64,000 nucleotides of DNA from NCBI RefSeq assembly GCF_000026545.1, contig NC_011601.1. One strand, 5' to 3'. This stretch comes from Escherichia coli O127:H6 str. E2348/69 (GTDB lineage: Bacteria; Pseudomonadota; Gammaproteobacteria; Enterobacterales; Enterobacteriaceae). A program made the position numbers. Shown piece by piece: positions 6,396 through 8,097 of the stretch; the stretch's first letter is position 1, and the number at the start of each line of letters is the position of its first letter.

Positions 6396-8097
6396 ATGAA
6401 CAGTGTGCATTTTGGCAATAAATATGAAACCAACTGTCATGTCGGTTTTTTTAAAGGCCGAAGGTGGTAAACCTTCGGCCTTAGCTACGTTTCCTCAGTT
6501 ATTCAATAAATTGACGGATCAGTTCTAGCAGCGCGATTAGCGCCTTAAGAACGATGAGAACTTTATCGAGAAAAGTTTTCATCCGTTGCTCCCTTAAGGG
6601 AGAAAGACAATCACAGCTTACCCTTACGTTGCCTGTAACTATGATTTTCTTCATGTGCTAGATGAGGACTGCCTCTCTCCAAATTAGAGCACCAGAATCA
6701 GCACCACCTGTATCCTGACCAGGACTTAAAAGTACTTTTCCGCACTGCGGTAATCCCTTGAGGCAGTATCACTACTAGCGTCGGGATTGTATCGCCAACA
6801 TAGCTGTTGTGTAAGTTCACAGAGATATTGCAATTGCCTCCGGATAAGTAAGGGGAGATTGCACTATGCAAATGCAGCATCTGATGGTTGGCTATCCTAA
6901 GTACTACCAAACGGCCGATTATGCGTTGAGGCTTTCAGTGATGGCTGATATAGCAACAATGAGAATGAAGGCTCTGCACTTCTGGGATAAACACGGTATT
7001 TCTGCAGCTTCTGAAGCCTTTGGCGTGTCCTGCCGCACGCTTTACTGGTGGCGTCAGTTACTGAACAAGGAAGGACCTGAGGGGCTAATCCCGCACAGTA
7101 AGGCACCTCTGGTGCGACGAAAAAAACACTGGCATCCCGATGTGCTGAAAGAGATTCGACGCCTCAGGACAGAGCTGCCGAACCTCGGTAAAGAGCAGAT
7201 TTTTGTTCGCCTGAAGCCCTGGTGCGAACAGCGCTATCTGGCCTGTCCGAGTGTTTCCACCATCGGCAGAATGATCGCTGCCGCACATGATAAAATGCGG
7301 ATGATACCTGTGCGTCTGGGATCGCGGGGGAAGGCACTGCTTGTCAAAAAGCGGTCTGCCAAACCCCGCAGGCCAAAGCACTACCGCCCGGTAAAGACAG
7401 GTGAGCTCATTGGGATGGACGCCATTGAGCTCAGAATGGGCGAACTGCGTCGCTATGTCATCACCATGATCGACGAATGCAGCAATTACGCGCTGGCGCT
7501 GGCTGTGCCGTCACTCAACAGTGATATCGTCAATCACTTCTTCAGCCGCGCAGCCCGGTTGTTCCCGGTCGGTATCAGCCAGATAATCACAGATAACGGA
7601 AAAGAGTTCCTGGGAAACTTCGACAAAACGCTGCAGGAAGCCGCTATCAAACACCTCTGGACCTATCCCTACACGCCAAAAATGAACGCTATCTGTGAAC
7701 GTTTTAACCGGACGTTAAGAGAGCAGTTTATTGAATTTAATGAGATTTTACTCTTTGAAGATCTGGCGCTATTTAACCAGAAGCTGGCGGAATATCTGGT
7801 GCTGTATAACAGCAAAAGACCCCACAAGGCGCTCGCACTAATGACGCCCGTGGAATATATTTTAAAAGAGAATAAAAATTGCAATATGTGGTGGACCCAT
7901 ACAGCTGTTTGAATATGTAGGCATCCTGACTTATAATTCACTTGCTAGATGAGGACTGTTTCATTTCTGCCCGGAACCACCAAGTCTTGGGCGGAAAAAA
8001 TAAAAAAACCGACTGTCATGTCGGTTTTTTTATATCTGTATTCTGGTGCAACCATTCTGTTCTCACGACAATCGCCGTTTCAGAATACCGCCCATCA

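Follow-up and report, generated by a model that had tools for sequence, protein, structure and literature searches.

We analyzed a 64-kb stretch of DNA (the window) that matches Escherichia coli E2348/69 at 100% identity, and in particular the gene between ybbP and mnmH that encodes a transposase. We propose with considerable confidence that this gene belongs to an intact, recently inserted, mobile insertion sequence (IS) of the ISKpn28 group, placed in a fixed orientation 5 bp upstream of the -35 box of a sigma-70 promoter. The element has exact boundaries, it is mobile, and its right end is associated with sigma-70 promoter sequences in one orientation and in a single register. A preliminary description of this DNA had instead proposed a single transposase gene that is domesticated or decayed. 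The ends of the element, the target duplication, an empty site, the intact reading frame, and many identical copies all contradict this.

Ends and target duplication

In E. coli strain M1, the insert is missing from this locus, which is 600 bp there and 1701 bp in E2348/69. The extra 1101 bp in E2348/69 correspond to a 1096-bp IS of the IS481 family and ISKpn28 group (6808..7903, + strand) plus a 5-bp target site duplication, GCTGT, with its left copy at 6803..6807 and its right copy at 7904..7908. At the left junction, CATAGCTGT is followed by TGTGTAAG and the rest of the IS; at the right junction, the IS ends with CCCATACA and is followed by GCTGTTTGAAT; and the empty site in M1 reads CATAGCTGTTTGAAT. 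The ends of the full-length matches at 100% identity (see below) coincide with these boundaries.

The IS has imperfect terminal inverted repeats, with matches at 20 of 28 aligned positions. The left repeat, TGTGTAAGTTCACAGAGATATTGCAATT, occupies 6808..6835 (+ strand). The right repeat occupies 7876..7903 (- strand; its reverse complement is TGTATGGGTCCACCACATATTGCAATT, aligned as TGTATGGGTCCAC-CACATATTGCAATT). The element starts with TGT at 6808 and ends with ACA at 7903; TGT termini are typical of the IS3 and IS481 families (10.1101/2022.12.17.520857). Both ends contain a perfect 11-bp core, ATATTGCAATT, which occurs nowhere else in the window. The core in the right repeat, AATTGCAATAT, is the same as that published for ISKpn28 (PMC6101004). 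The preliminary description had reported no recognizable inverted repeats, and because the repeats are imperfect, they are easily overlooked by eye. It had also stated that clear inverted repeats and a short target duplication would make this an ordinary insertion sequence, and the empty site reveals both.

Transposase

The transposase open reading frame (ORF; 6866..7912, + strand) encodes 348 amino acids, with a helix-turn-helix (HTH) domain and the integrase-core domains rve and rve_3 from Pfam. The best match in NCBIfam is to transpos_IS481 (E = 1.5e-65, 221.6 bits, model positions 2-283 of 284), and the next-best family, IS3, scores 98 bits. This bears out the original assignment as an IS481-like DDE transposase with an HTH and an integrase core. 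The catalytic residues are D185, D243, and E278. The transposase is a single uninterrupted ORF with no IS3-type frameshift.

There is no stop codon for this frame inside the IS. Instead, the frame runs through the 5-bp duplication and into the -35 box, so that the last three codons are in flanking DNA, with the stop (TGA) at 7910-7912. If the -35 box starts with TTGA, as it does for the copy in the window, then the frame stops at once (ACA NNN NNT TGA); if it starts with TTGC, then the frame continues. Because the stop codon comes from the flank, the annotated length varies (1047 to 1107 nt among the copies that we fetched, and 348 to 372 amino acids among cluster members). The other copies (L005-L012) have a few to about 24 extra residues or are flagged as 'incomplete' in RefSeq, which has the same cause.

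Copies and relatives

The same 1096 bp are present at 100% identity, from the first base to the last, in over 140 E. coli records, including both chromosomes and plasmids. Across 5426 E. coli genomes, our survey located the IS at 1927 places, spread over 1419 genomes; a single genome has as many as 38, and 146 records are at 99% identity or above. The insertion between ybbP and mnmH was present in only 5 of the 5426 genomes. A scan with one genome per species gave a single match. We also fetched eight further copies, which represent seven distinct insertion sites (the hokA site was obtained from two strains). A 5-bp duplication is present at six of the seven sites, each time with a different sequence, and one site lacks a duplication. 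The copy in the window is an active IS and a recent insertion.

More than a thousand E. coli records contain older variants of this IS, about 93% identical, at fixed positions. These sites lie between galF and yegH (L054) and between iss and iroB on ColV-type plasmids (L055). The variants have degenerate ends or broken ORFs, and they show no clean duplication or promoter motif. Unlike the copy in the window, they are decayed relics.

ISKpn28, from Klebsiella pneumoniae, is about 1100 bp and has the same termini (TGTGTAAGTTCACA.AGATATTGCAATTGCC and ...TTGCAATATGTGGTGG.CCCATACA). It also resembles the element in the window in its core (ATATTGCAATT), its size, its single ORF, its 5-bp duplication, its placement 5 bp upstream of TTG, and its association with hok loci. 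Two elements are usually considered to be the same IS by ISfinder if they are over 90% identical in nucleotides or over 95% identical in amino acids. Although the termini are common to both, the two elements are just 75.3% identical in nucleotides and 80.1% identical in amino acids, so we rejected the idea that our element is ISKpn28 or an isoform of it. By these identities, it is a distinct IS in the ISKpn28 group. RefSeq has only the generic name 'IS481 family transposase' for it.

IS481 and IS1002 of Bordetella likewise have a single DDE ORF, TGT...ACA ends, a short duplication, and a sequence-biased target. The similarity of their proteins to the transposase in the window is at the level of the family only. 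The target of IS481 is NCTAGN. Unlike the short palindromic target of IS481 and IS1002, the target here would be a composite sigma-70 promoter in one orientation.

Insertion sites and their association with sigma-70 promoters

In every one of the copies that we first examined, the duplication at the right end is followed directly by TTG and, 17 bp further on, by a -10-like hexamer. We collected right-end flanks of the IS from the window and its relative ISKpn28 from E. coli genomes, plasmids, and viral and metagenome contigs, and grouped the 181 flanks into 63 distinct sites. (A shorter query, an 18-mer, matched mostly an unrelated phage gene in the viral contigs.) At 16 of the 17 sites whose duplication was verified, TTG is at +6 to +8, or in other words, exactly 5 bp separate the right end from the TTG downstream. 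About 17 bp after the TTG is a -10-like TAnnnT, and the orientation is always away from the IS. An anchored sigma-70 score exceeded the 99th percentile of the background for 32 of 46 sites at offset 5, versus 0 to 4 sites at each of the offsets 0-4 and 6-11. No promoter signal was found in the outward direction from the left end.

The sequence information in these flanks is mainly at the TTG, the G at -14 (as in an extended -10), the TAa..T, and a T at +40, while the duplication and the spacer have little or none. Spacers of 16 and 18 bp do occur, and the register stays anchored on the TTG. The pattern persists if the mutually homologous hok sites are removed: TTG is kept in 23 of 40 sites (p about 1e-30), and a strict TAnnnT at 16-18 bp follows in 12 of these 23, as compared to 2% after random TTGs. 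As judged from these motifs, the sites that are hit are sigma-70 promoters or promoter-like sequences.

Several observations weigh against this account. The motif is missing from about 40% of all site clusters, and one site with a verified duplication (L090) is not promoter-like. The hok sites are mutually homologous, and the metagenome contigs may over-sample some lineages. The NCBIfam score for IS481 is 2.4 bits short of the curated cutoff of 224. Finally, our literature search gave no account of IS481-family elements that target promoters or hok/sok, but ISfinder and TnPedia were outside that search, and the preference may be recorded there.

Most of the sites that lack the motif either have no duplication or have a left end that is off the contig, and some (L059, L066, L175) appear to be nested deletions that adjoin the right end. 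One flank (L109) had no match in E. coli. In the metagenome contigs L059, L066, L175, and L148, compared with L070, the right end abuts a shared downstream sequence at differing offsets, and among these contigs is one hok site without its Sok promoter. These joins appear to reflect nested deletions of the DNA that adjoins this end.

Which loci are hit

The annotated targets are at places where a promoter would be anticipated. At hokA, hokB, hokD, and other hok loci, the right flank of the IS is the hok leader/Sok region. The duplication at these sites is often TCTCC, the reverse complement of GGAGA, which we read as the Shine-Dalgarno sequence of hok. If so, the IS severs the toxin ORF from its leader and promoter and leaves the antisense promoter whole. 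Given the known layout of hok/sok, the promoter that is hit is presumably that of Sok itself. ISKpn28 follows the same rule on Klebsiella plasmids, and five of the seven copies of it that we fetched are beside Hok toxin genes, in the same orientation.

At a recurrent site in lambdoid prophages (L013, L019, L026), the right end of the IS is followed by TTGAAA-17-TAAATT. This site is just upstream of a match to the STnc100 family of Rfam and between genes for a Q-like antiterminator and the holin/endolysin. It is the position of the lambdoid late promoter, so an IS here would part Q from the late promoter region. The IS was found once where sthA starts and once in the cvi region of ColV plasmids, and two insertions are within genes, at promoter-like sequences (in an Ig-like adhesin gene and in a Rha gene). 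Rfam searches of 17 further target loci identified no additional small RNA (sRNA) adjoining the IS.

E2348/69 also has an intact, unoccupied hok/sok locus in the window, at 60105-60405. It comprises an Rfam match to sok (60105-60260) and a hok-like ORF (60253-60405, + strand). Its predicted Sok promoter, on the minus strand at about 60240-60212, is TTGCCT-17-TACCAT, which is of the favored target type.

How the sites might be chosen

By analogy with the family, the transposase would bind both imperfect inverted repeats (core ATATTGCAATT), and a copy would be excised, probably as a circle, by a copy-out-paste-in route as in IS3-like elements. It would then integrate with a 5-bp staggered cut. 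Integration is not random: the right end is set exactly 5 bp upstream of the -35 hexamer, so that the duplication corresponds to about -40 to -36, and the promoter always fires away from the IS. In the window, the target was the promoter of an AgrB-like sRNA, TTGAAT-17-TATAAT, whose core is left intact, and the transposase frame ends on the TGA of the -35 box. We looked by eye for a promoter at the circle junction of the two IS ends and did not see a convincing arrangement.

We tentatively suggest that the cue for the site is promoter-bound RNA polymerase holoenzyme, with sigma-70 on the -35 box. Sigma-70 reads the very positions that are informative, the length of the spacer is flexible, and the recurrent targets are promoters of short RNAs, of kinds that are known or expected to be constitutive. 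(In K-12, AgrA and AgrB are not regulated by UV; PMC3567139.) A broader proposal, which is possible but which we hold with some doubt, is that this group of ISs docks on promoter-bound sigma-70 RNA polymerase and integrates at about -40 to -36 in one orientation, with constitutive small-RNA promoters (Sok, AgrB-like, and phage late promoters) as its landing pads.

The transposase might instead read the target DNA by itself, with TTG near the cut and TAnnnT two helical turns away, and RNA polymerase would have no role. The likeness to a promoter would then reflect convergence, or the transposase would have a sigma-like DNA-binding surface. In favor of this reading, the TTG is in a fixed register; also, TTGCAA is part of the core that the transposase would bind in the inverted repeats, and the -35 box is TTGCAA or TTGCCT at several targets. 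However, the informative positions match those of the sigma-70 holoenzyme, down to the G at -14 of an extended -10, and the register remains anchored on the TTG even though the spacer can be 16 to 18 bp long. The inverted repeats also lack the TTG-17-TAnnnT arrangement. We consider direct reading by the transposase to be unlikely. Another idea is that insertion is random and that selection retains the insertions that are upstream of promoters or that disarm type I toxins. Many of the sites are indeed toxin-antitoxin loci in which the toxin ORF has been cut from its leader and promoter, and such insertions should be harmless or beneficial. But selection does not explain why only an offset of 5 is seen, to a single base, nor the strict orientation, nor the insertions at promoter-like sequences inside ORFs (the Ig-like adhesin and Rha genes), so as an account of the pattern we view it as very improbable. 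Selection probably does influence which promoters remain occupied, as the cost of disarming a type I toxin is low. As for a lone domesticated or decayed gene without ends, bounded by direct repeats and perhaps an intact version of ylbG from K-12, the imperfect inverted repeats, the lack of a stop codon inside the element, and the 'incomplete' flag on some RefSeq copies could all be cited for it. Against these stand the ends, the duplication, the empty site, and the many identical copies; in addition, ylbG is unrelated beyond the HTH, and the direct repeats are present without the IS. We give this explanation virtually no credence.

The DinQ/AgrB-type module at the insertion site

The promoter beside the IS belongs to a second type I toxin-antitoxin module of the DinQ/AgrB family, at 6414-8033 between ybbP and mnmH, where K-12 has the rhsD island instead. 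The toxin gene is a DinQ-like type I toxin ORF of 27 amino acids (MKTFLDKVLIVLKALIALLELIRQFIE; 6499..6582, - strand), which is annotated as dinQ in RefSeq and whose DNA is 69% identical to the dinQ locus of K-12 (by BLAST). The leaders of the two genes can also be aligned. The antisense RNA is an AgrB-like sRNA (7945..8033, + strand) that matches the AgrB family of Rfam (RF02891, 53.6 bits versus a gathering score of 40) and aligns with agrA/agrB from K-12, including the terminator. Its intrinsic terminator is at 8000-8033 (+ strand). The putative sigma-70 promoter of the sRNA (7909..7937, + strand) has a -35 box of TTGAAT (7909-7914), a 17-bp spacer, and a -10 box of TATAAT (7932-7937). It is the sole promoter-like site from a simple scan of the 600-bp empty locus, and its position is homologous to that of the agrA/agrB promoters of K-12. 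The insertion has left the core of this promoter intact, but it has replaced the DNA upstream of it with the right end of the IS and has moved the divergent dinQ-like gene another 1.1 kb away.

AgrB of K-12 has a 5' end that is antisense to a repeat in the leader of dinQ and that keeps the toxin under control (PMC3567139). From the alignment with K-12, the corresponding repeats here are at 6650..6671, in the 5' leader of the dinQ-like gene (the target of the AgrB-like RNA), and at 7937..7958, at the 5' end of the sRNA. These 22-nt direct repeats are 91% identical and share an exact 16-mer (6656-6671 and 7943-7958). The predicted pairing has 14 perfect bases from the start of the sRNA, followed by 9 positions with G-U pairs and one mismatch. 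The preliminary description had noticed direct repeats around the transposase gene, and they do exist (the right 16-mer is one base from where it had been placed), but as boundaries of a mobile unit they fail: M1 has both copies although its site is empty, so they were not made by the insertion. They are the antisense-pairing repeat of a DinQ/AgrB-type module and are part of the target locus, not of the IS. A further similar segment that had been pointed out, atcctgac, was found as an 8-mer at 6712 and 7923.

The module resembles dinQ-agrAB of K-12, which is in the arsR-gor region, in its homologous toxin ORF, sRNA, terminator, divergent layout, and antisense repeat. It differs in its site (ybbP-mnmH) and in having one agr-like gene instead of two. 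The LexA operator of dinQ in K-12 (TACTGTATGATTATCCAGTT) has no conserved counterpart in the pairwise alignment, but we did not conduct a dedicated search for LexA boxes. Because that operator is not conserved, the module in the window may be outside of SOS control. We considered CTGT-N8-GTAG at the insertion site as a LexA box, but by eye and from the alignment to the K-12 dinQ it is not a convincing operator. Neither inspection by eye nor the simple scan of the empty locus gave a convincing -35/-10 pair for the dinQ-like gene.

The module also contains a 40-nt direct repeat (6414-6453 and 7993-8032, 83% identity) that spans two intrinsic terminators, with the sequence AAACC(A/G)ACTGTCATGTCGGTTTTTTTA. 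One of these terminators is beyond the 3' end of the dinQ-like gene and the other ends the AgrB-like RNA. An old duplication within the module may have left this repeat.

Genomic context and comparison to K-12

The gene order in RefSeq is ybbA, ybbP, the small gene annotated as dinQ, the 'IS481 family transposase', mnmH, allS, allA, and allR. In K-12, rhsD-ybbC-ylbH-ybbD-ylbI-ylbG lie between ybbP and selU (mnmH), and no part of this block is present between ybbP and mnmH in E2348/69. The absence of rhsD-ybbC-ylbH had been noted before, and the comparison with K-12 agrees. The intergenic DNA between ybbP and mnmH of E2348/69 gave no match in a DNA comparison with the ybbP-selU region of K-12. 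Matches to the Rfam family ES036 (CssrF) at 6319-6361, downstream of ybbP, and at 61205-61246, near the other hok locus, are to palindromic DNA that resembles repetitive extragenic palindromic (REP) sequences.

The suggestion that the transposase is the intact counterpart of ylbG from K-12 does not hold for its sequence, its position, or its strand. The similarity is confined to the HTH (33% identity over 43 amino acids), and ylbG (L003 10646-11017) adjoins selU and is on the strand opposite to that of the element in E2348/69. Instead, ylbG corresponds to about 110 N-terminal residues of another IS481-family transposase, with a score of 89.9 bits against the IS481 model. We also rejected yagA from K-12 as a counterpart, as it is only 23% identical.

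Implications

Other bacterial mobile elements likewise insert in one orientation and at a set spacing from a functional DNA site to which a host protein binds: the IS1202/ISAba32 group at XerCD sites, Tn7 at attTn7, and IS1397/ISKpn1 or ISPpu9 at REP sequences. For all of these elements, published proposals invoke a 'safe haven' or 'ride on mobile DNA' logic (10.1101/2022.12.17.520857; PMC12288879). What differs for the IS group described here is that the functional site is a promoter, and in the literature that we searched, we found no bacterial precedent for a promoter as a target site of this kind. In eukaryotes, Ty3 inserts at the start sites of RNA polymerase III and Tf1 at promoters of RNA polymerase II, in both cases at a fixed position beside the transcription-initiation complex. 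The enzymes and hosts are unrelated to ours, and while tethering to the transcription machinery is demonstrated for these elements, for ours we infer it. If our proposal is correct, then this group would be a bacterial counterpart of the promoter-homing retroelements of eukaryotes.

For annotation, the element should be described as an ordinary intact IS of the IS481 family and not as a domesticated gene. The rule that the right end is 5 bp upstream of a -35 box provides a simple test for the ends of such elements and for the cause of the variation in their ORF length. A possible application is as a tool for promoter-directed insertion.

The pattern suggests a direct link between the transposase and the transcription machinery. 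An IS that is placed relative to sigma-70 promoters in this way, with one orientation and one spacing, would represent a new class of target selection among the transposons of bacteria. Such targeting would also account for the accumulation of these ISs in modules of the hok/sok and dinQ/agrB types, whether on plasmids, prophages, or chromosomes, where the IS parts the toxin gene from its leader and spares the promoter of the antitoxin. Since such promoters are common on plasmids and prophages, the IS would spread horizontally and, at the same time, disarm type I toxins.

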